Source of the DNA: Verrucomicrobiota bacterium
GTDB taxonomy: Bacteria > Verrucomicrobiota > Verrucomicrobiia > Limisphaerales > UBA11358
Reading direction: 5' to 3'
DNA: 64,000 bases
Assembly (NCBI GenBank): GCA_050015635.1
Contig: JBEKBA010000003.1
Coordinates: forward strand, 73 to 64,072
The translations under genes were made by a program, and so were the position numbers. Numbering within the stretch: position 1 is the first letter of the stretch; every line of letters begins with the position of its first letter. Shown here in pieces: positions 1,688 through 50,510 of the stretch. The notes beneath the pieces were generated by a model that was not told the origin of the DNA, made no database searches, and saw nothing but the letters and a program-made list of their open reading frames with translations.

Positions 1688-3214
1688 TTATTGTGTTTTT
1701 GTGGCCTGTGTCGTAACCGGCGGACTGTGGATGTAACGATCCGCCCATTTCAAAAACGTCGGCCAGTTTGGGCCGTCAGTGTGTCCGCCATCGTGCTGGC
1801 GCCACGCGAGATCGCCATCAATCAATGCAGTATTTAATGGCGGCATCGGGTCGGTGAGATAGTTGCCGGCAGTGCCCAAATCTTTTTTGCCAAGAAGCTT
1901 GAACACGGCGCCGGCAGCGACCGCAGCCATGAAACTGCCGTGCTGATCCACCCACGTGCCTTCCGCGCCGGGGGTGCCTGACGAAGCGCCGTAACTGATG
2001 AACGTTGGACGTGGAGCGCAAAGCGCAATCAATTCATGCGCGTCCACCGGCAAATCACCGGGTGTCAACGGGCCGCCGTATTTGAGAAAATTGCCCGCCA
2101 TCCAATGATATTCGCCGGAGCCGGTCAGATTTTCAACCACTTCGCCCCAATTGCGCCGCGAAAGTTTTGCGCCGCCTTCACCGGACGAACCGACCAGCGC
2201 AATGGCGAAACGCTGGTCATACGCCATCGTGACCAGGGTCGCTTTGCCATAGCGCGAGAGCCCTTCGATGCCGACTTGTTTCGCGTCCACAGCCGGGTCA
2301 GTTTCAAAATAATCCAAAGCCCGACTCGCACCCCAGGCCCACGCGCGCAACGCGCCCCAATCATCCGGCTTGCGCGGCTGGCCTTTATTGCAAAGACCAA
2401 TGATCCCCCGGGTCAATCCCGCGCCATTGTCGGCCTGATAACTTGTAGGCACGATGACGGCATAACCCCAACCCCTGGCCAGAACCAGTTGCCGCCAATT
2501 AGTTCCGCCGCCCAATCCGCCACCGAAACTTCCCCGTGCAAATCTGTTCGTCCCGTCAAAACCGCCAATACCGTTTGTTCCGCTGAAGCGGCCACGCCCG
2601 CCAAATCCGGGAAAATTTCCAAAACTAAAATCCATCATCACCGGCACCGGACCCGTCGCATTGGCGGGCGTGGTCAATGTCAATTGAATGTCAACCTTGA
2701 TGAGCGGGTATGAAGTATTATCCACGTGTCCGACGAGTTGTTTGGTGATCACCGGCACAGTGCCGTTGTTTGTCTTCGTCACGCTCGTAACTTCCCAATT
2801 CACTTTGGGCACGTTTGCCGGAACCCGACCATATACTTCGCGATCAAAATCTTCGACGATCTCGGAGCGGCGCTGATTCCACCACATTTTCGGCGTCGTG
2901 ACTCTTTCTCCATTCTTCAATGTCAGCGGGTCAGGCAAATTTGGAAATGGATTGGCTTTGGACTCGTCGGTGTTCTGATAATTAGGCGCCTGACGATTAA
3001 GGCCATTTGCGCCCGGCCGCAATGTTTTGATGCCCAGTTGCTCCATCATATTCTGATGATCCTGTTCCGCGCTCCAATTCATCGGTGCCGGCAGATTCGT
3101 TTCCGTGAAAGGTACTGTCGTTTGCTGCGCGCGGGAAAAATCGGGCGCCATTAAAATAACAAACGTAAATGCAAAAAAAGAAGCAGGTTGAATTCGCATG
3201 ATTTTGCCGGTCAA
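1688..3214 (-). CDS. Secreted alpha/beta hydrolase, carbohydrate esterase family 15 (glucuronoyl esterase)-like
   Basis: 508 aa with an N-terminal signal peptide. The nucleophile elbow G-L-S-R-Y-G-K resembles the CE15 G-C-S-R-x-G-K motif. Long Gly-rich insert. Confidence 0.65.
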   Translation of the reverse strand: MTGKIMRIQPASFFAFTFVILMAPDFSRAQQTTVPFTETNLPAPMNWSAEQDHQNMMEQLGIKTLRPGANGLNRQAPNYQNTDESKANPFPNLPDPLTLKNGERVTTPKMWWNQRRSEIVEDFDREVYGRVPANVPKVNWEVTSVTKTNNGTVPVITKQLVGHVDNTSYPLIKVDIQLTLTTPANATGPVPVMMDFSFGNFPGFGGRGRFSGTNGIGGFDGTNRFARGSFGGGLGGGTNWRQLVLARGWGYAVIVPTSYQADNGAGLTRGIIGLCNKGQPRKPDDWGALRAWAWGASRALDYFETDPAVDAKQVGIEGLSRYGKATLVTMAYDQRFAIALVGSSGEGGAKLSRRNWGEVVENLTGSGEYHWMAGNFLKYGGPLTPGDLPVDAHELIALCAPRPTFISYGASSGTPGAEGTWVDQHGSFMAAVAAGAVFKLLGKKDLGTAGNYLTDPMPPLNTALIDGDLAWRQHDGGHTDGPNWPTFLKWADRYIHSPPVTTQATKTQ

Positions 3215-10958: not shown

Positions 10959-11060
10959 ACTACAACGGTATCCGTGTTAATACAACATGGATTTGTGTGA
11001 ATGCAGCATTCATGCAGGGTCGCTGCAGCCGGTCTGCAATGTCGCTGCAACTCGCCCGCT

Positions 11061-11116
11061 CTTTTTTGTTCCCGATTCACTGGACCTTGTCCCCCATCCC
11101 CGCGCCGTCAGGCGCA
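11061..11116 (+). repeat. REP-like interspersed element, uninterrupted copy
   Basis: CTTTTTTGTTCCCGATTCACTGGACCTTGTCCCCCATCCCCGCGCCGTCAGGCGCAT. Its reverse complement matches 44366-44422. Contains hairpin GCGCC-GTCA-GGCGC. Confidence 0.75.
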
Positions 11117-11147
11117 TCCGTGTTCATCCGTGGTAAAAAATGCAAGT

Positions 11148-41742: not shown

Positions 41743-42006
41743 ATGACCAGAACACAAAGAACACTCCTTGTCAGCGCGGCTATCACCGGCTTGCTGACGG
41801 GCGTCTGTGCGAAAACTTACGCGCAGAGCACCAACGCGCCGGGCACCAACGCGCCGAGCGGCGACACGGGCAAACACGACTGCCAGGGCAAAAACACCTG
41901 CAAAGGCCTGGGCGGTTGCAAGGGCAGCGACAATGGCTGCACAGGCAAGAACAGTTGCAGCGGCAAGGGCGGCTGCAATACCAAGGGCAGTTGCAAATCC
42001 GTGTAA
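41743..42006 (+). CDS. Cys-rich, Sec-signal-bearing RiPP precursor (bufferin BufA2-like)
   Basis: 87 aa. Signal peptide is MTRTQRTLLVSAAITGLLTGVCAKTYA. The core has 7 Cys in about 44 aa, with two C-x-G-K-N-x-C-x-G-x-G-G-C units. Sits immediately upstream of a DUF692 gene. Confidence 0.7.
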   Translation: MTRTQRTLLVSAAITGLLTGVCAKTYAQSTNAPGTNAPSGDTGKHDCQGKNTCKGLGGCKGSDNGCTGKNSCSGKGGCNTKGSCKSV

Positions 42007-42072
42007 TGTCCGGTTTCATTTTGGAGAGCGAAGTTGTGGAAATTTCGCTCTCCAATTTTTATTTGGAGAGCC

Positions 42073-42927
42073 ATGCCCGCCAATCCATTCAATAACTTTA
42101 CCGATTACGGCATCGGCATCGGCCTGCGCGTGCCGCATTACGATCATATTCTTTCCCGGAAGCCGGCCGTGGGATGGTTTGAGATTATCTCGGAAAATTT
42201 CATGTGCGATGGCGGGCGACCCCTGAAGGTGCTTGATCAAATCCTTGAACAATATCGCGTGGTGCAGCACGGCGTCTCAATGTATTTCGGTTCGTCGGAA
42301 AAATTGAATCGCGAGCATCTGAAAAAAATCAAGCGGCTCGTCAAACGTACGAACACGCCGTGGCTGTCCGACCATCTTTGCTGGGGCAGCGTGGACGGAC
42401 GCTACACGCACGATCTGCTGCCGATGCCCTACACCTTCGCCGCCGCGCGCGTCACCGCGCAACGCATCCGCGAGGCGCGCGATTTTCTCGAAGTTCCCAT
42501 CGCCGTCGAAAACGTAAGCAGCTACGCGGAATTCCACGTTTCGGAAATGACCGAATGGGAATTTCTCAACGAAGTGGTCGAGCGCGCCGACTGCGGAATT
42601 TTGCTGGACGTGAACAACATTTACGTCTCCTCGCGCAACCACGGTTTCAACCCGTTCGATTACGTGAACGGCATTCCGGCGCATCGCGTCGCGCAGATTC
42701 ACATCGCCGGCCACAGCAAATTCCAGAAATATATTCTGGACACGCACGACCATCCGGTCATTGACCCGGTCTGGAAACTTTACGAACGGGCGATCCAACG
42801 CACCGGCAAAACCGCGACGCTTTTGGAATGGGACGACCGTATTCCCTCGTTCGACGAAGTCCACGATGAAGCGTTAAAAGCCGGAAAATTCCTGAAACGT
42901 CTTGAAAACGAACTTGTCAGCGCGTAA
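42073..42927 (+). CDS. DUF692 / MbnB-like multinuclear non-haem iron oxidative (MNIO) enzyme
   Basis: 284 aa from MPANPFNN. DUF692 pattern runs throughout (GIGLR..H...I......WFE.ISEN; HGVS; LSDHLCW; LLP.P; ENVS.Y; LLDVNN.YVS..N; IHIAGH; DTHD; LLEWD..IP). Confidence 0.85.
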   Translation: MPANPFNNFTDYGIGIGLRVPHYDHILSRKPAVGWFEIISENFMCDGGRPLKVLDQILEQYRVVQHGVSMYFGSSEKLNREHLKKIKRLVKRTNTPWLSDHLCWGSVDGRYTHDLLPMPYTFAAARVTAQRIREARDFLEVPIAVENVSSYAEFHVSEMTEWEFLNEVVERADCGILLDVNNIYVSSRNHGFNPFDYVNGIPAHRVAQIHIAGHSKFQKYILDTHDHPVIDPVWKLYERAIQRTGKTATLLEWDDRIPSFDEVHDEALKAGKFLKRLENELVSA

Positions 42928-43840
42928 CCCGCAAACCCAGCGCGAATTTCACGAGTTGCAACGGCTCATGGCCCGCGCGGTCATGCGCCCGCTCGGTCGC
43001 GGCGACGCGATGCAACGCAAATGGATTGACGGTCGTCCGACAAAAAAAATCGCGGAAAGTTTCATCAAACCAAACGATCGGTTGAATTCCTTCGAGCGGC
43101 TCGAGATTTACAATCGTCAATACTGGTTTCGTATCCGCGATTGTTTTTACGACGATTATCCCGGCCTGCGCGCCATTCTCGGCGACAAAAAATTCGAGCG
43201 GCTCGCCGACAAATATCTCACGCATTGCCCGTCGCAATCCTTCACGCTGCGGAATCTGGGGTCGCGACTGGTGAAATTTTTGGAGGCTGAACCAAAGCTG
43301 GCTGCGCCACATCAGGAACTCGCGCTCGACCTGGCGCGGCTTGAATGGGCGCACACCGAAGCCTTCGACAACGAAGCTAAACCCCCGTTGCAAGCCAACG
43401 ATTTGTTGGACGCCGACCCGGCCAAAATTCGTTTGCAATTGCAGCCGCACTTGACGTTGTTGACACTCGAAAATGAAGTGGATGATTTTCTAATTGAGTT
43501 GAAAAAAAAATCAGGTTTGCGCAGCGAAGCAAGCAACGCGATGGAACAAAATCATCGCCACAAAAAAACGAAAATCGCGCGGGGACTGAAACGCGGGAAA
43601 AATTTTCTCGTGGTTCACCGTTATAATGACGGTGTTTATTACAAGCGGCTTGAACCGGGTCAATTTCTGGTTTTATCCGCGCTGCAACGCGGCGCGACGC
43701 TGGAAAAAGGCTGCGCGACCCTGATTCAATTAAAATCCTTCAAGGGCGATTTGAGCGAAAAGATCACAAAATGGTTTTCAAGCTGGGCCGCACTCGGCTG
43801 GTTTTGCGGTCTGGAAAATCCGGCGAAAGGAAAATCATGA
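42902..43840 (+). CDS. DUF2063-family partner protein (BufC/HvfC-like)
   Basis: 312 aa. Overlaps the DUF692 gene by 26 nt. N-terminal LQRLMARAVM...Y.RQYWFR pattern. Conserved position in DUF692 operons. Confidence 0.7.
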   Translation: MKTNLSARNPQTQREFHELQRLMARAVMRPLGRGDAMQRKWIDGRPTKKIAESFIKPNDRLNSFERLEIYNRQYWFRIRDCFYDDYPGLRAILGDKKFERLADKYLTHCPSQSFTLRNLGSRLVKFLEAEPKLAAPHQELALDLARLEWAHTEAFDNEAKPPLQANDLLDADPAKIRLQLQPHLTLLTLENEVDDFLIELKKKSGLRSEASNAMEQNHRHKKTKIARGLKRGKNFLVVHRYNDGVYYKRLEPGQFLVLSALQRGATLEKGCATLIQLKSFKGDLSEKITKWFSSWAALGWFCGLENPAKGKS

Positions 43841-44310
43841 AAAGATTGGGAAAAGGTCATCATTTTTTTGTTAAGGCGGCGAATTTTCTGCAGTCGCCAT
43901 TCCTGCTGGCCATCCGGCTTTACTGGGGCTGGCAATTTTTTGAAACGGGAAAAGGCAAGCTGGAAAATATACAAAACGTCGTCCAATTTTTTCAGACGCT
44001 TAACATTCCCATGCCCGAAGTGAACGCGTGGATCGTCGCCATCATGGAATGCTTCGGCGGACTGCTGCTGATGGCCGGACTCGGCTCGCGGCTGGTCGCG
44101 TTTGCGCTCGCGTTCGACATGGTCATCGCCTACATCACCGCCGATTCGGAGGCGTTGAAGTCCATCTTCACCGATTCGGACAAATTTGTGCAGGCCGCCC
44201 CGTTTCCGTTTCTACTGATGACGTTGACGGTTTTGGTTTTTGGGGCCGGCGTCTTCTCGCTCGACTGGCTGATGGGAAGAATATTTTTCCGCAAAACCGG
44301 AAATGCCTGA
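43837..44310 (+). CDS. DoxX-family membrane protein
   Basis: 157 aa from MKRLGKGHHF. LAIRLYWGWQF..TG..K and four hydrophobic helices. ATGA overlap with the upstream gene. Confidence 0.8.
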   Translation: MKRLGKGHHFFVKAANFLQSPFLLAIRLYWGWQFFETGKGKLENIQNVVQFFQTLNIPMPEVNAWIVAIMECFGGLLLMAGLGSRLVAFALAFDMVIAYITADSEALKSIFTDSDKFVQAAPFPFLLMTLTVLVFGAGVFSLDWLMGRIFFRKTGNA

Positions 44311-44365
44311 TGGCTGTTTTTTCGTCGGGCGCGAGCATTTTCGGATGCCCCTTGCGGGGCGGCCA

Positions 44366-44422
44366 ATGCGCCTGACGGCGCGGGGATGTGGGATAGGATC
44401 CAGGAAATCGGGAACAAAAAAG
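44366..44422 (-). repeat. REP-like interspersed element, copy interrupted at its end by the IS
   Basis: ATGCGCCTGACGGCGCGGGGATGTGGGATAGGATCCAGGAAATCGGGAACAAAAAAG is the reverse-complement paralogue of 11061-11116. Confidence 0.75.
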
Positions 44423-44451
44423 GGTAACAATATACCTGTCACAACATAGCC
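44423..44451 (+). repeat. Left terminal inverted repeat of the IS1595-family element
   Basis: GGTAACAATATACCTGTCACAACATAGCC. Confidence 0.85.
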
Positions 44452-44485
44452 ATTGGAGGTCGTTTGCCAGTATGTGACCTGATTT

Positions 44486-44659
44486 TCAACGGTGCTTTTT
44501 GGCTTCCCGTTTTTTTAAGTTGCTGGCCTGAAACGCAGCCAACTGTCTGTCTGATTCCGATTTGCTGACTGACAGCACTTTCTTGATGACTCTTTTGAAG
44601 CCGCCAAGCGAAATCAGCGGAACATCGTCGGCTGATTGATGTTTTGTTTTATTGTTCAC
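44486..44659 (-). CDS. Possible fourth passenger ORF, small basic protein (not in ORF track)
   Basis: 57 codons from a GTG that overlaps the upstream stop as GTGA. Reads VNNKTKHQSADDVPLISLGGFKRVIKKVLSVSKSESDRQLAAFQASNLKKREAKKHR. No in-frame ATG. Confidence 0.3.
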   Translation of the reverse strand: MNNKTKHQSADDVPLISLGGFKRVIKKVLSVSKSESDRQLAAFQASNLKKREAKKHR

Positions 44660-45189
44660 TTACTAAATATCTTAAACAGGCGTTTGAAAAATCCAATTCT
44701 ATCTCTTTGTAAGATTTTAACTGGTTCTCCGTAGGCTGGAAAGTTTCCATTAAGACACTCAATCGTATAATGTTCGATGACTTGATACGGGCCAAGTTTG
44801 CTTCTCCAATTTCCATTTACCATTTGTCTAGCGGCGTGCGTTGGCATATCGGGAGTCGTGGCCGGAAAAGCTCCAACGGGATCATAATAAATAACTACCT
44901 TTTCAAGATTTGGTTCGGAGGTAGAAAACTTGTTTTTTTGCTCGGTATATCTGAATAATCCAAACGCCTGAACAAACCCATCTACTGTTTCTTCTCGTTT
45001 TTGTAGTGGCCAATAATACTGTCCGTAAGGGTCTGGCCACCACCATCTAGTTTTATCGCCAGCGGCGTAAGCGATACAATTATATCTTTTAGTTGGCCAG
45101 ATAGTGACAGCGTGATATAAATCTCTTGTCAAAGATGGAAAACAGCCTTCAAGGTCGCGGGCTAGATACCATTTAATTCGGATAGCCAT
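44656..45189 (-). CDS. Passenger protein C: hypothetical, Trp-rich, with Cys...His pattern suggestive of a papain-like fold
   Basis: 177 aa. Motifs YNCIAYAAGD...WWWPDPYGQYYWP and, later, PTHAARQMVNGNWRSKLG. Overlaps protein B by 17 nt. Confidence 0.6.
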   Translation of the reverse strand: MAIRIKWYLARDLEGCFPSLTRDLYHAVTIWPTKRYNCIAYAAGDKTRWWWPDPYGQYYWPLQKREETVDGFVQAFGLFRYTEQKNKFSTSEPNLEKVVIYYDPVGAFPATTPDMPTHAARQMVNGNWRSKLGPYQVIEHYTIECLNGNFPAYGEPVKILQRDRIGFFKRLFKIFSK

Positions 45190-45832
45190 TCTCTTTTCCC
45201 CATTTCAACCAAGCTTCCCTCATCTTTTTTAGATTTCCAGCGTCCTCTGGCTTAATTGGAGAAATTTTTGCGATTGCTCTTAAGGCGGTGAACCAGTGGT
45301 TTGTTTCTTTTTTCAAATCACGATGAATAAATTTAATTGCCGGTCGCCCCATTCCAATAATATCCAAATAGGCAGGGTGCATTACAATTGCAGAGATTGA
45401 AGATTGAAATTGAGTTTCTTTTTTCCATCTTTTTGACAATAGATCAAATTCTGATTCTAATTGCGAAACGTCAACGGAAACAGTTGGGGCAACTATGTCG
45501 GTCGGAGAAATTACACTCGTCAGAGGGAAACTTCCATAATCGAACGTAATAGCATATCCATTTGTTTTCAATTCACATAAATCCCACTTTTTTTGCAATT
45601 CCTGCCAGAGAGATGTTAAATCACAAACACTCTGCTCTGACTTGCGGAAAAGAACATTATTTGGATTCATATCCAAGTGCAGCACGTCAACTTTTGGCGC
45701 TGGCACTTGTTTTTTAGCCGAAAACTGTGGATGATTAAACCAATTCAAAACGGCGCGACGTGGCTTCAGGGCAGGCGTATCATCATACTCCATCCATGAT
45801 TCTCTTTCAGATTTAGCTGCTAGTGTCTGCAT
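45173..45832 (-). CDS. Passenger protein B: hypothetical
   Basis: 219 aa with a helical C-terminal region (NHWFTALRAIAKISPIKPEDAGNLKKMREAWLKWGKENGY). Starts 10 nt after the protein A stop. Confidence 0.6.
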   Translation of the reverse strand: MQTLAAKSERESWMEYDDTPALKPRRAVLNWFNHPQFSAKKQVPAPKVDVLHLDMNPNNVLFRKSEQSVCDLTSLWQELQKKWDLCELKTNGYAITFDYGSFPLTSVISPTDIVAPTVSVDVSQLESEFDLLSKRWKKETQFQSSISAIVMHPAYLDIIGMGRPAIKFIHRDLKKETNHWFTALRAIAKISPIKPEDAGNLKKMREAWLKWGKENGYPN

Positions 45833-45842
45833 GAAAATTTAT

Positions 45843-46520
45843 TTATACTTCGAGATATGGAACGCTTGAGCTTTTTAGTATTGATTCAAGTGCTTTCGTC
45901 TTTTTCTCTGCACGAGCAATCACTTCTTTCAGAGACTTAATATCATCTGTGTCTAAAGCAACGTAAAATTCCTTGTGTTTGCCTGTTCCGCCATCATGGA
46001 ATCCAATTTGTAAATTGTGAATTATCATAGCACCTGACGCCGAATCAGCCGTGCTTGTGAACACTGGCCGTATGTCGGAGAGAACTCTTGCGCGGCAAAA
46101 AGTGTGCTTATGTTCGGTCATCACATCAAATGCTTTCGATGTAACCGCCATTGTTTTTTCAAAGCCGAGCAGCTTTTGGAGGCGGCTGATTAAAATCTCC
46201 TTTTTTCCTGTTGAAAATTCAAAGTCCTTTGATACGGATTCTAAAATTGATTCACCAACGTCGTTTGCTAAATCTTTAGCAGACAATTCCGCCCTCTCTT
46301 TCATCGCATACAAAATGAAAATAACCCTGCAAATCTCTGACAATTCATCAGTCTCAATTGTTTTAACTTTTTCTTTAACATTGCCGATGAATTGCCTGCG
46401 CCTCAAAGTGGGATTCGTCTCGCCAAATGCAGAAATCAAGGAATTGAATTGAGGATCGTCAAGTTCTGAAATCGCTTTTAGAACCGGCAAATCTTCGTCT
46501 GGAATGGTTAATGAAGCCAT
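45843..46520 (-). CDS. Passenger protein A: hypothetical
   Basis: 225 aa. Helical N-terminal half and a beta-rich C-terminal half (GAMIIHNLQIGFHDGGTGKHKEFYVALD). No recognised family. Confidence 0.6.
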   Translation of the reverse strand: MASLTIPDEDLPVLKAISELDDPQFNSLISAFGETNPTLRRRQFIGNVKEKVKTIETDELSEICRVIFILYAMKERAELSAKDLANDVGESILESVSKDFEFSTGKKEILISRLQKLLGFEKTMAVTSKAFDVMTEHKHTFCRARVLSDIRPVFTSTADSASGAMIIHNLQIGFHDGGTGKHKEFYVALDTDDIKSLKEVIARAEKKTKALESILKSSSVPYLEV

Positions 46521-46636
46521 ATAATTCCTATAAAAGACGCTCGTTTTGTTTCATTTCCATATAAATATAGCCGCAAAAATCAGCCGTCAAACGATTATTT
46601 TTTCTGTTGGCCGCGACGCTGACGGCTATTTGCCAT

Positions 46637-47584
46637 TCAATTTCCATCGGCGTTACCGCCGATTAACTGCTGATATGTCAATCTTCGTCCCGAAATTCCG
46701 CCCAACGCTTTCTGAAATCGTTCGCCGTCATTGTTCTCACGATTGTTGAATCGAAACGCCTGCTCATCAAGATAACGAAACAGGTGAAACGGCTCAACGC
46801 TGACGTATGTTCCCTTAAAGCAACGCTTCAGCAAGCACCAAAAATTCTCCAATCCGTTCGTGTGGACGTTGCCGCGCACATATTCCTTTGCGTGGTCAAT
46901 CGCTTCGTGAACGTAATCCTTGCTCAATCCGTAATATGACGGCAACGCATCGGTGAACACCTGCGAACCGGCGGCGACGTGCTGGCGAATTTCACCTTGA
47001 ACCGTGCTGCGTCTGGCGTTCGGAACGTGCTTCAATTTAATTTTGCCCTTGCGTTCCAAAAGTCCCATGACAATCGCTTTGCCGACGCCACCAGTGCCAC
47101 GACCGCGTTTTCGTTTTTTGTCGGTGTGCATATTGCGAACTTTTCCGCCGATATAAGTTTCATCCGCTTCAATTTCGCCGGACAATTTTTCAATCGTGCC
47201 GGACTGCAAAGCCAAACGGATTCTTTGTTCTAAAAACCACGCGCTCTTTTGCGTGATGCCCAATGCGCGGTGCAATTCGTGAGAACTGATTCCGTTTTTT
47301 GCGCTGGCGACAAGCCACATTCCAAGCAGCCACTTGTCCAAACCGATAGGGCTATCTTCCATGACAGTTCCGACCTTGAACGAAAACTGGCGACGGTTCG
47401 GGCAATCTTCGCACGTCCAAACTCTGCGCTTGGCGGTGAATGACACATGGACAGAACCGCAGCGCGGACATTTCACGCCGTCCGGCCAGCGCATTGCAAC
47501 GGCAAATTTCAGGGCGGTGTCGGCATCGGCAAAATGCGCCGTGGCTTCTTTCAGCGTCTTTGGGAACTCGGTTTTATCTTTCAT
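46637..47584 (-). CDS. IS1595-family (ISXO2-like) transposase
   Basis: 315 aa. N-terminal zinc ribbon (CPRCGS...CEDC), an HTH, and a DDE region with EADETYIGGK. Confidence 0.9.
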   Translation of the reverse strand: MKDKTEFPKTLKEATAHFADADTALKFAVAMRWPDGVKCPRCGSVHVSFTAKRRVWTCEDCPNRRQFSFKVGTVMEDSPIGLDKWLLGMWLVASAKNGISSHELHRALGITQKSAWFLEQRIRLALQSGTIEKLSGEIEADETYIGGKVRNMHTDKKRKRGRGTGGVGKAIVMGLLERKGKIKLKHVPNARRSTVQGEIRQHVAAGSQVFTDALPSYYGLSKDYVHEAIDHAKEYVRGNVHTNGLENFWCLLKRCFKGTYVSVEPFHLFRYLDEQAFRFNNRENNDGERFQKALGGISGRRLTYQQLIGGNADGN

Positions 47585-47603
47585 GCGCTCAATATCGCAG
47601 AAA

Positions 47604-47632
47604 GTCTATGTTGTGTCAAGTATATTATTACC
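47604..47632 (-). repeat. Right terminal inverted repeat of the IS1595-family element
   Basis: The reverse complement reads GGTAATAATATACTTGACACAACATAGAC. Confidence 0.85.
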
Positions 47633-47665
47633 CAAAAAAGAGTGGGAGCGCAAGCGGTCCTTGTG

Positions 47666-47695
47666 GACGGGCAACGTGACGCTGCACCCGATTAC
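47666..47695 (-). repeat. REP-like hairpin (GTAATCGGGTGCAGCGTCACGTTGCCCGTC on minus strand)
   Basis: Same family as 13008-13031 and 13532-13555. Confidence 0.7.
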
Positions 47696-47994
47696 GGACG
47701 CCGCAGTCGCCGTCGCGCGTTCCGCTATGGCGGCCGGGGCGCGGCGTCCCTACCGTCCAAATTGGCCAATTTCAGCTTGTTGTTTTTGCGGCTTAGTTGA
47801 GTCATTTGTGACTATCGCGTGATGCCCTGCAAGTCGTTTTTTTTGGTTGATTTTGTTGGTGTTTTTCGTTGTTAATAAGTCGTTGGGAATTATTGTTGCG
47901 TCGCATGAACGGATATATTATTAACCATTCAACTGCTGGAATGGCAGGCTTGAATAAATTTTAAAAAGCGAATCGAACAAACCAAAGAGACAAA

Positions 47995-48747
47995 ATGAAA
48001 CTGAAAAACAAAATCATCACTGTAGGCGCCGCGCTGGCATTTTTAACTTTTGCGACTTGCGGGCTGCAGGCGCAAATAACAAACCTGGTTACAATCACCG
48101 CGACAGCCTGGGAGCAAGGCACCAACTACAACATCACCAATATCGTTATCAAGCTTGGTACCACTAATGTCACTGTTTACACCAAGTATGTGAAACCACC
48201 CCAAGAATCTCTTGACACGAAAGATATACTCAAAGAGCTGGCTAAGGATGAAGACGCGGCGGGACTTTGGACCTCCAACAACTTTCCCTCCGGCGCGCAA
48301 CTGGCGGTTATAGACGGTGGTGATATTACCAACAAATTTGTGGTGTTGGGCAAGACGAACAACCTTCTCGTTGTTGTTACCAATATTGTAAGTCTCGCAA
48401 AAGGAACCAACGACATTGACGTTGTCAGCGGCGAAGAGAATGACACGACCGGTCTTTACTCCCCTTCCAAGACCGACATGCACCTTTTGGATTTCATTTT
48501 TGACGATACCGCAATCACCAACGCTGGAAGCGGCGACATTAAGTTCGATCTGCTCGGTTTGGATACGCAAAAGGTAACCGACACCAAACCCGTGGCGTCG
48601 GGAGCACATGAGGGAGACTATACGGAGACCGTTTCAACCTCGGTGCCTTCAGCCGTTGGCGAAGGGACTGATAATGGCATCGATGTTGTCCTGACCGGCA
48701 GCATTACCGGAACGGGATCAGTAAAGCTTGTATACGTTGCTCCGTAG
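47995..48747 (+). CDS. Secreted hypothetical protein
   Basis: 250 aa with a signal peptide (ITVGAALAFLTFATCGLQA). Thr/Asn/Val-rich and beta-rich. AT-richer than the backbone. Confidence 0.6.
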   Translation: MKLKNKIITVGAALAFLTFATCGLQAQITNLVTITATAWEQGTNYNITNIVIKLGTTNVTVYTKYVKPPQESLDTKDILKELAKDEDAAGLWTSNNFPSGAQLAVIDGGDITNKFVVLGKTNNLLVVVTNIVSLAKGTNDIDVVSGEENDTTGLYSPSKTDMHLLDFIFDDTAITNAGSGDIKFDLLGLDTQKVTDTKPVASGAHEGDYTETVSTSVPSAVGEGTDNGIDVVLTGSITGTGSVKLVYVAP

Positions 48748-48918
48748 AGCAATTAAGTCCGTCGAGTAATATCGCCGGAATCTGTCATCTGACGTGCGTT
48801 TGGTTCGACACATTATTTTTCTGTGTCGAACCAAATTTTTTGGGGCAGCCGACCATCTTGACCTGCCGACTCTTGGCGAATTGAAACGCACACAATAAAC
48901 AGCGGATTGCGGCATAAT

Positions 48919-48950
48919 GCAGTCTTGCTGCACAAGGTCTGCAAGACTGC
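48919..48950. repeat. GC-rich hairpin (10-bp stem GCAGTCTTGC/GCAAGACTGC, 12-nt loop)
   Basis: Read directly. Lies between convergent genes and has no U-tract. Confidence 0.5.
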
Positions 48951-49010
48951 TGCAGCAGTGCTGCCGCGCCCAAATTGCGGCGGGAAGGGCAAAAGTTTTC
49001 ATGGCCCGGA

Positions 49011-50375
49011 TCAGGCAGCCGTTTTATGGGTGAATTGATGTTGCCTGCTGATTTTGGCGAGTCGCTTTTCCCAATCGCTCCTGTGTGCGAGCGGGTCGGC
49101 GTCTGTTCCCCACAATTTTTTCACCATCTCGCGTTGCGGCACAAACGGGCATTTGGACTTCGGATTCCTGTGCGCGTCGTCGAGTTGACGCAAGGCCAAT
49201 TGTGCGCCGGTCATCAACGCCGGTTTTTCCGGGCGGACAAATTGCGCATTCAATTTGTGCGCCGCTTCATCCAGCGCGCCCCAGCGTTCGGCATCGGTTG
49301 TTCCCCATAGTGTCGGTTGGGTGTCCAGCCGCGACAAATTTCCAAACCCGATGCGGATTTGCCGCACGGATTTAAAAGCGCGGCTCATCAAATCACGGAA
49401 AATCTCTTCCAGCACGGAATTGATGATTGAGTTTTGGAATTGCGCGTGTTGAAAACGATGGCTGCCGCCGGCTTCGGTGAAATCGTTGAAACGAATCGTC
49501 AAACTCAATTCACGCGGTTGCAACTGTTCGCGCCGCAACTGGCCGACCAGCCGGGTGGCTTCGCTCAAGGTGAAGGTCAGCGCCGCTTCGTAGTCCGGTT
49601 CGTCGTAGGGCAGGGTGGTGTTGCTCGAAATGCTGGCACGGTCCTTGACTTCAAGCAAAAGCGGCTCATGCCATTTGCCATTTGAGAAAAGCCAAAGTTG
49701 TTGTCCCCAGATTCCAAATTTCTGTTTGAGCAACATTGACGGCAGATTTGCCACGTCGCCAAATGTGGTTGCGCCCAAAGCGGCCAATGCCCGTTCGCGA
49801 TTTTTGGCAATGCCGGAAAGCTCGCGCACGGAACGATCTTTCAAAAATTCCTTTTCCTGTCCGGCGGGAATTTCGATGAAGCCGGGCTTGGCCGCATCGG
49901 TCGCCAATTTTGCCAGACGCGATGAACTTGCCAAGCCGCCGGACACCGGCAATCCAACTTCCCTGCGGATGCGTTCGCCAATCTGCCTCATGTAATCCAT
50001 CGGGGTCGTGTGCTGCCAGACGTGTTTGTCCATTGTGGTGAAATCCAGAAAACCTTCGTCAATGGAGATCGGCACGAGCGTGGGCGAGTATTCTTCGAGG
50101 ATGCGAAACATCTCCTGCGACAATCGCCGGTATTCGTCATAGTGCGGACGGCACAGAACACCTTTGGGGCAAAGCCGTTTCGCCTCGAAACACGCCATGC
50201 CGGTTTTGACGCCAAATTTTTTAGCGAGCCGGTTGGCGGCAATCACGATGCCGTCGCCGCGCCGTCCGCCGCCCACCCAAACGGCTCGCGCCTGCAATTT
50301 GGAATTCAACGCCACTTCGCAACTGGCGAAGAAGCTGTCACCGTCAACGTGGAGGATTCGGTTGTTGTTGCTCAT
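49011..50375 (-). CDS. dinB: Y-family DNA polymerase (Pol IV-like)
   Basis: 454 aa from MSNNNRILHVDGDSFFASCE. SIDEGFLD motif. Little-finger region plus a C-terminal extension. Confidence 0.85.
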   Translation of the reverse strand: MSNNNRILHVDGDSFFASCEVALNSKLQARAVWVGGGRRGDGIVIAANRLAKKFGVKTGMACFEAKRLCPKGVLCRPHYDEYRRLSQEMFRILEEYSPTLVPISIDEGFLDFTTMDKHVWQHTTPMDYMRQIGERIRREVGLPVSGGLASSSRLAKLATDAAKPGFIEIPAGQEKEFLKDRSVRELSGIAKNRERALAALGATTFGDVANLPSMLLKQKFGIWGQQLWLFSNGKWHEPLLLEVKDRASISSNTTLPYDEPDYEAALTFTLSEATRLVGQLRREQLQPRELSLTIRFNDFTEAGGSHRFQHAQFQNSIINSVLEEIFRDLMSRAFKSVRQIRIGFGNLSRLDTQPTLWGTTDAERWGALDEAAHKLNAQFVRPEKPALMTGAQLALRQLDDAHRNPKSKCPFVPQREMVKKLWGTDADPLAHRSDWEKRLAKISRQHQFTHKTAA

Positions 50376-50510
50376 GCGCGGCAAACAATTTAGCGCGACG
50401 CGGGATTCCGCCAAGAAACAAAGATGAGAAAATTCTCAGCTTCCGCTTTCCCTTTGAGACGAAACAACGCCCGGAGCGGGTTAATTACTGAATCGGATGA
50501 TGGCGGGTGT

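Follow-up and report, generated by a model that had tools for sequence, protein, structure and literature searches.

An IS1595-family insertion sequence with a passenger cassette of COMMD-like and DUF7689 genes in a Verrucomicrobiota genome

The window analysed here is a stretch of 64,000 nucleotides from contig JBEKBA010000003.1 of a Verrucomicrobiota bacterium (assembly GCA_050015635.1). It contains a mobile unit of 3210 bp at positions 44423-47632, an insertion sequence (IS) of the IS1595 family with an intact transposase gene. Behind the stop codon of the transposase gene and before the far end of the unit, four open reading frames (ORFs) of 225, 219, 177 and 57 amino acids (aa) follow on the same strand, in agreement with the initial annotation of a passenger-carrying IS. 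The three larger ones, designated genes A, B and C, all lie inside the terminal inverted repeats together with the minus-strand transposase gene, and the smallest is referred to as D57 (Table 1). We regard it as practically certain that this unit is a cargo-carrying IS.

Boundaries and insertion site of the element

Of the 29 positions of the terminal inverted repeats (GGTAACAATATACCTGTCACAACATAGCC compared with the reverse complement of 47604-47632), 25 are the same, as had been annotated. A repeat finder extended the pair to 33 nt at 85%, and no inverted repeat in the region is longer. A degenerate pattern of 27 nt derived from both ends was found at these two sites only in the 64 kb and was absent from all 100 shuffled sequences. 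The four mismatches between the ends recur exactly in L009, an element with different cargo, so the asymmetry of the ends was inherited and is not a sign of decay. Both ends abut a perfect copy of the octamer CAAAAAAG, which bears out the annotated 8-bp duplication. Inverted repeats one base longer on the outward side were rejected because the duplication would then be broken.

The same locus without the insertion, and with a single CAAAAAAG, was found in contigs of two other metagenomes, L088 (182 kb) and L089, by a look-up of the flanking DoxX protein. The flanks of both contigs are more than 99.7% identical to the window, with an identical DoxX gene and downstream 250-aa gene, and these two genes are 468 bp apart in L088 and L089 as against 3685 bp in the window. 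The left flank (window 42000-44422, L088 3230-5653) is identical at 2418 of 2424 positions and the right flank (window 47633-50500, L088 5646-8513) at 2867 of 2868, whereby the two alignments overlap in L088 by exactly 8 bp, the length of one CAAAAAAG. L088 and L089 join across a single octamer, from which it follows that the 3210 bp were inserted, that this insertion created the duplication and that its presence varies among near-identical genomes. The unit was inserted recently, as one piece, at an intergenic site, duplicating CAAAAAAG. The relatively recent insertion proposed in the initial annotation is supported. A 1805-bp contig of a further metagenome (L001) was found to be 100% identical to the element from the 3' end of the transposase gene through A into B. 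The variable presence of the unit in near-identical genomes and the intactness of its gene and ends are indirect evidence of transposition activity. A point that weighs against present activity is the absence of a second copy of any element gene from the 64-kb window.

Table 1. Features of the element and of its insertion site, in window coordinates
Feature	Position	Strand	Remarks
Intergenic repeat of about 63 nt	44360-44422	+	Contains hairpin GCGCC-TGAC-GGCGC; insertion about 6 nt inside the 3' end of the repeat
Target-site duplication, left copy, CAAAAAAG	44415-44422	.	Same octamer single in the uninterrupted locus of L088 and L089
Terminal inverted repeat distal to the transposase gene, GGTAACAATATACCTGTCACAACATAGCC	44423-44451	+	29 nt identical to the matching end of L009
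D57, basic ORF of 57 aa	44486-44659	-	Conserved in elements with unrelated cargo
Cargo gene C, 177 aa, DUF7689	44656-45189	-	PF24738, 9.3e-29
Cargo gene B, 219 aa	45173-45832	-	Variable N-terminus; conserved helical C-terminal domain of about 95 aa without a Pfam model
Cargo gene A, 225 aa, bacterial COMMD-like protein	45843-46520	-	Match to PDB 9q6a/9q6c/9q6d
IS1595-family DDE transposase, 315 aa, intact	46637-47584	-	PF12762, PF12760, NF033547
Promoter-like site	47591-47619	-	-35 TTGACA inside the inverted repeat, 17-nt spacer, TG-GATATT, 7 nt before the transposase ATG
Terminal inverted repeat on the transposase side, GGTAATAATATACTTGACACAACATAGAC on the minus strand	47604-47632	-	35 nt identical to the matching end of L009
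Target-site duplication, right copy, CAAAAAAG	47633-47640	.	Single in the uninterrupted locus

An empty site had also been proposed within the window, at a paralogue of the repeat into which the element is inserted, and this repeat had been described as repetitive extragenic palindrome (REP)-like. The window contains one other copy of the 63-nt repeat (11055-11117, minus strand), and each copy immediately follows the 3' end of a gene. The paralogue is real; its alignment covers 57 nt to the left of the junction but just 6 nt to the right, five of them identical. With so little sequence beyond the junction, it was rejected as a sufficient empty site, and the claim of an adequate internal control did not stand; the external contigs L088 and L089 are by far the better evidence. 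With two copies only in the window, a REP-like repeat family was not established.

The repeats and the duplication could be regarded as a coincidence or an assembly chimera, in which an IS of about 1 kb lies beside resident chromosomal ORFs. The octamer is A-rich and such sequences recur easily, and the in-window paralogue supports just 5-6 nt past the junction. This explanation is refuted by the empty-site contigs, which join precisely across one octamer. The result of the shuffles also opposes it, as do 22 other elements with homologous ends and perfect 8-bp duplications, and the repeat finder detected no inner inverted repeat in the region that bounds the transposase gene alone. Its probability is negligible. 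The outer repeats are the true ends, as the external empty site and the related elements both indicate, and no relatives of the transposase with closer-in ends, a possibility raised in the initial annotation, were found.

The assignment of the transposase to the IS1595 family, with an ISXO2-like DDE domain, was confirmed by matches to PF12762 (2.6e-43, profile positions 1-153 of 153) and to NCBIfam NF033547 (176.7 bits against a cut-off of 75). The zinc ribbon was also recognized (PF12760; 5.4e-12, 45.9 bits against a cut-off of 25.4, residues 22-61). Reading the protein by eye, we located zinc-ribbon cysteines at positions 39, 42, 58 and 61, aspartates in ADETY and FTDA, as well as E246 and K253. 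The segment GLENFWCLLKR, read by eye as a glutamate with a lysine at +7, is a lead only toward the ISNwi1-like DDE-plus-K subgroup. An exact-sequence look-up of the transposase returned no record, and the nearest annotated plasmid transposases in a tblastn search were at most 40% identical. A scan of one genome per species gave 79 loci, the closest being in Verrucomicrobiota metagenome-assembled genomes (MAGs) at 89%, 88% and 81% identity; these relatives point to a Verrucomicrobiota host, with the element probably in its chromosome. By analogy with other members of the IS1595 family, the DDE transposase would act on the two ends of the unit. The promoter-like site in front of its gene is a consensus match only, and such sites are no more numerous in the region than expected by chance.

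Upstream of the insertion (window 42000-44310; L088 3303-5540) lies an operon of MbnB/TglH/ChrH-like (PF05114), HvfC_N (PF09836) and DoxX genes, an order associated with small metal-binding or modified peptides. The element is inserted 105-112 nt past the DoxX stop codon. A called ORF of 100 aa in L088 (5533-5835) spans the insertion site and would be split by the element; it may be spurious.

Related elements and the two-part backbone

An end-consensus search of the 79 transposase loci and of metagenomic loci identified 22 further elements with homologous ends and their own perfect 8-bp duplications, ranging from 1780 to 4884 bp. Examples of these duplications are CAAATTAA in L004, CTTTATAG in L009, CAGAAAAG in L010, CTGTTTAG in L027 and AAACTAAA in L024, and the target consensus across the 23 elements (that of the window included) is roughly C-W-A-A-T-T-A-G. 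Every bounded element found holds DNA beyond the transposase gene. A plain version of about 1 kb was looked for among the 79 genomic loci and none was found, the shortest bounded element being the one of 1780 bp.

Conservation at the DNA level is confined to the two ends. Compared by BLASTN with L009, L025 and L027, nucleotides 1-1000 of the element, which comprise one end and the transposase gene, are 84-87% identical and nucleotides 2988-3210, which comprise the 57-aa ORF and the far end, are 83-91% identical, whereas the 2 kb between these blocks have no DNA similarity to any of the three. The cargo also differs in GC content (about 0.38-0.42) from the transposase gene (about 0.45-0.58) and the flanks (about 0.54). 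The backbone of the lineage consists of the transposase end and the 57-aa-ORF end, with cargo between them that varies by element. The cargo would be exchanged by recombination within the conserved end modules.

Several sister elements carry genes for DNA methylation. In L009 (2099-4726), an N6-adenine methyltransferase is fused to the C-terminal domain found in protein B and is followed by a DUF7689 gene, while in L027 (7473-10598) a single protein of 1041 aa contains the methyltransferase, the B domain and DUF7689. These two methyltransferase fusions hint that the B-DUF7689 core can couple to DNA modification. A D12 methyltransferase together with a 461-aa ORF that has no assignment was found in L016, and DUF4760 in L010. 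The element L024 (443-3540; 3098 bp, duplication AAACTAAA) occurs in a cultured bacterium, Abditibacterium utsteinense LMG 29911 (NZ_NIGF01000018.1), where the cargo consists of Peptidase_M78 (ImmA-like) and DUF4411 genes and the 57-aa ORF is present. Pfam scans of many of the variable first genes and of other cargo ORFs mostly gave no match. One sister element with the duplication TAAATTAG (L023, 5133-7941) is unusual in position and cargo, as a 274-aa ORF with a weak match to the Proteasome subunit family (PF00227, 7e-06) lies between its end and the transposase gene, upstream of the latter.

D57 was found to recur in 19 other loci at 42-85% amino-acid identity, among them L010, L012 and L024, whose cargo is unrelated, and it is absent from the IS-free cassettes described below. 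Its relatives share the motif PLxP..FK..KKxLS..KxESDxQLAxFQASN..KRxAKK, and no match was obtained in Pfam, NCBIfam, PHROG or PADLOC. Relative to the window copy, 98 differences fall on the third codon position as against 62 and 57 on the other two (chi-square p = 0.001), although these comparisons are non-independent. Two points count against D57 as a gene: its three closest relatives do not have the third-position excess, and part of the conservation could belong to transposase-binding DNA near the end. On its pattern of conservation we read D57 as a probable backbone gene of the IS lineage and not as cargo. The three to four passenger ORFs of the initial annotation would accordingly be reduced to A, B and C, which are cargo.

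The A-B-C cassette

Protein A matches the PDB entries 9q6a, 9q6c and 9q6d, which describe the "COMMD-like protein MBK5214510" of a Flavobacteriaceae bacterium, at E 1.5e-14 over residues 6-211. A profile of the A family built from 55 members matches 9q6a at E 9.3e-33, with positions 2-213 aligned to chain residues 21-233. By these matches, A has a helical N-terminal domain followed by a COMM domain, and by analogy with its solved relatives it would be expected to form ring oligomers. All of the 80 A homologues are unnamed except for one with an apparently mistaken transporter label; none of them matches the identity of the solved MBK5214510, and a tblastn search of plasmids with A gave no match. 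For prokaryotic COMMD-like proteins in general, 250 bacterial and 111 archaeal members have been reported, with rings of 8 or 10 subunits that resemble the core of the eukaryotic Commander complex and a function described as unknown (Liu et al., Nat Commun 2026, PMC13392464).

Protein B has a hypervariable N-terminus that was poorly predicted, its model being good for about residues 120-219 only. The helical C-terminal domain of about 95 aa (window 45176-45466, minus strand) is characterized by the motif WK.ET...S...MHPAY..I...G..A.P.IL..L......WF.AL......P........AWL.WG. A profile of this domain detected 9,379 representative proteins (50%-identity clusters) at E<=1e-3 and 7,383 at E<=1e-10, and in most of the top 150 matches the domain is at or near the C-terminus. 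Ten members were compared with Pfam, of which nine had no match and the tenth had a match outside the B domain.

Protein C belongs to DUF7689 (PF24738), with a score of 101 bits against a gathering cut-off of 22.6. Three of its residues (C38, H118 and H140) are invariant in 51 homologues. In an AlphaFold2 model (predicted local distance difference test score 90.7), a helix begins with C38 and the two histidines lie on neighbouring strands. On the basis of these residues and the model, we predict that C is a hydrolase of the Cys-His-His type, with an arrangement like that of papain or NlpC/P60 enzymes. A literature search on DUF7689 returned nothing relevant.

Genes B and C overlap by 17 nt, and in every examined locus that has DUF7689 the B domain lies directly before it or is fused to it. 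The B-C pair was also found in loci of a distant Cloacimonetes MAG and of a Bryobacteraceae MAG, in which the first gene is not COMMD-like. Since B-C persists with other first genes and is fused in L027, B and C appear to form a functionally linked core to which an interchangeable first gene is added.

A metagenome scan with the A family profile confirmed at least 393 relatives, and the best 80 loci were analysed. Among these 80, the A gene is followed by B and C in 37 of the 45 loci with at least 1.2 kb of downstream sequence, and association with an IS could be classified in 58. Twenty-two of the 58 have the layout of the window (transposase-A-B-C), with A proteins 30-70% identical to that of the window and a 57-aa ORF after C in eight of them. 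Another seven belong to a second IS1595 lineage with other ends (GGGATTATGCACTT...) and a transposase gene that is inverted and located after C. In the remaining 29, neither a gene nor an end of an IS1595 element was found near the A gene. Cargo-carrying IS1595 elements, from two lineages or more, thus account for about half of the copies that could be classified. A complete member of the second lineage was found at 5674-8861 of L114 with the duplication ATCGGCTC, and another, at about 6648-9871 of L174, came from a separate protein look-up. The second lineage (ends GGGATTATGCACTTCACAAA) is present as well in L102, L111, L112, L115, L119 and L157. The cassette was apparently captured independently by this lineage.

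The genes A, B and C are conserved as a unit, and this unit occurs without an IS as well. The initial annotation had named the occurrence of the three ORFs without transposase and inverted repeats at homologous loci as evidence against the element. Such cassettes do exist elsewhere, but at other loci in other genomes. As the IS-free cassettes are at different loci, they mark the cassette as an independent module and do not prove the unit to be immobile. In eight loci (L107, L128, L136, L142, L147, L151, L156 and L165), COMMD-like genes with about 30-45% identity to A were found without B and C despite ample downstream sequence. Because of these eight loci, not all members of the subfamily can be assigned to the cassette.

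The distribution also bears on whether A, B and C are cargo at all. They might instead be accessory transposition or regulatory factors of the IS, which would for example choose its targets or regulate the transposase. In favour of this, the genes follow the transposase gene closely on one strand, their order recurs in the 22 metagenomic loci even though A is only 30-70% identical, and the 57-aa ORF next to them does behave as part of the backbone. On the other hand, the A gene is found without an IS1595 gene or end in 29 of the 58 classifiable loci, sister elements whose transposases are 88-89% identical and whose ends are near-identical hold cargo of quite another kind, and the same cassette is borne by a second IS1595 lineage with other ends and the opposite transposase orientation. 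A role as accessory factors is therefore very improbable, and we treat A, B and C as independent cargo.

Function of the cassette and comparison with known systems

We propose tentatively, and with slightly less than even confidence, that the A-B-C cassette is a conflict module of the toxin-antitoxin or defence type. This reading was reached because the cargo of sister elements is of conflict type, the genes overlap, the N-terminus of B is hypervariable, C has catalytic-type residues, and some neighbours of related cassettes are defence or toxin-antitoxin genes. One IS-free cassette sits among HepT/MNT, PemK and HTH_3 genes. In the Cloacimonetes MAG (L170, 3803-5456 and 6349-10456), a DUF7689 triad whose first gene encodes a 248-aa protein that is not COMMD-like adjoins a restriction-modification-like gene with MmeI/Eco57I-type methylase domains. 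Close by, L170 also encodes a Lactamase_B/anti-Pycsar-like protein. In the proposed arrangement, C would be the Cys-His-His hydrolase effector, B would act through its conserved C-terminal domain as the cognate partner or neutraliser of C, and A would be an interchangeable third component serving as a sensing or scaffolding ring. Carrying a selfish module of this kind would favour the persistence and spread of the element.

Several results weigh against a conflict module. None of A, B and C matched a model in PADLOC or PHROG, nor one above the cut-offs in NCBIfam, and several IS-free cassettes were observed among ordinary metabolic genes. Structural comparison of B with the PDB by Foldseek gave no significant match. 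For C, the best PDB match had an E value of 0.17 with template-modelling (TM) scores of 0.2-0.3, which is not significant, and the best match in a viral library was an unnamed protein (E 1.7e-3, TM 0.47). The weak Foldseek matches of C include Josephin-like, staphopain and NlpC/P60 entries. Because the Foldseek results are not significant, the assignment of C to a hydrolase fold draws mainly on the invariant residues and the order of secondary-structure elements; searches of the PDB with the sequences and profiles of B and C returned nothing meaningful. A literature search on COMMD proteins and anti-phage defence likewise found nothing relevant, and the link discussed for prokaryotic COMMD-like genes is with type VI secretion-like genes, in Myxococcota only, and not with defence (PMC13392464).

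The same observations bear on the view that the passenger has an ordinary physiological function, such as one in the envelope or in protein assembly around a COMMD-like ring, without a conflict or addiction role, and that its frequent presence on an IS is incidental hitch-hiking. The lack of matches to defence-database models, the IS-free copies among metabolic genes and the proposed secretion-system link of other COMMD-like genes (PMC13392464) all agree with it. However, transporter IS of two lineages account for about half of the loci that could be classified, which is more typical of selfish or defence cargo, and the cargo of the sister elements is mostly made up of methyltransferase, restriction-modification-like and ImmA/DUF4411 modules. 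Further points against this view are the hypervariable N-terminus of B, the interchangeable first gene and the copy in a toxin-antitoxin-rich island, and we consider it improbable.

A broader form of the conflict-module reading would place A-B-C in a widespread, so far undescribed three-component conflict system, in which a DUF7689 hydrolase is paired with a B partner (at least 9,379 clusters), the COMMD-like ring is one of several interchangeable sensors or scaffolds, and the IS1595 elements, with a segment dedicated to cargo, have spread the system between phyla. We consider this extension possible yet doubtful. If it is true, it would give a first functional context to the bacterial COMMD-like proteins, which are proposed ancestors of the COMMD subunits of the eukaryotic Commander complex, and would make these proteins horizontally mobile. 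Taken as a whole, the reading of the unit as an intact transporter IS of the IS1595 family, with a two-part backbone and with the A-B-C cassette as a conflict module, is one that we hold with good confidence, its parts keeping the strengths given to them above.

The element is a minimal IS for which the movement of cargo is cleanly proven by an empty site, a target duplication and 22 sister elements. The lineage appears to be one in which the cargo changes and the end modules on either side are kept, with a small, uncharacterised protein encoded in one of them. An IS-borne cassette bears on the arguments over the origin and transfer of COMMD-like genes, with B and DUF7689 as concrete candidate partners of the latter, and the related element in the cultured Abditibacterium utsteinense LMG 29911 offers an experimental handle.

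In comparison with the published COMMD-like proteins (PMC13392464), protein A is alike in that almost its whole length can be aligned to the solved Flavobacteriaceae protein, and it differs in that its gene opens a conserved cassette of three genes, often IS-borne. The words transposase, operon and mobile do not appear in the text of that paper. As in the NlpC/P60 and papain-like hydrolases, DUF7689 has an invariant cysteine at the start of a helix and two invariant histidines on consecutive strands; however, C has no significant match to them, with TM scores of at most 0.3 against the PDB and empty profile searches, and its place among these hydrolases is not established.

Toxin-antitoxin pairs ride in Tn3-family transposons, and defence and restriction-modification genes are carried on mobile elements. 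The present cassette resembles the Tn3-borne pairs as a compact module of small overlapping genes inside a transposable unit, and the sister elements carry methyltransferase, restriction-modification-like and ImmA/DUF4411 modules. It differs from them in that the carrier is a minimal IS and that the module has three genes and no known toxin or antitoxin family.

The closest comparison is with the transporter IS (tIS) of the IS1595 family itself. The passenger-carrying subgroups ISNwi1+, ISPna2+ and ISNha5 were reportedly set out by Siguier, Gagnevin and Chandler in 2009 (ISfinder listing). Like these tIS, the elements studied here have a zinc-ribbon DDE transposase, short inverted repeats, 8-bp duplications and passengers inside the repeats, with sizes of 1.8-4.9 kb. 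The window lineage differs in its 57-aa far-end ORF, in DNA conservation that is confined to the ends and in its COMMD-like/B/DUF7689 cargo, and to our knowledge none of these three features has been described for the IS1595 family. The backbone layout, the B-DUF7689 core and the IS-borne COMMD-like subfamily were absent from the literature searched. Passenger-carrying IS1595 elements are already an established category, of which the window element is a further member; what is new is a backbone that keeps a small ORF at one end, a B-DUF7689 core whose first gene can be exchanged, and a COMMD-like subfamily that is often IS-borne.

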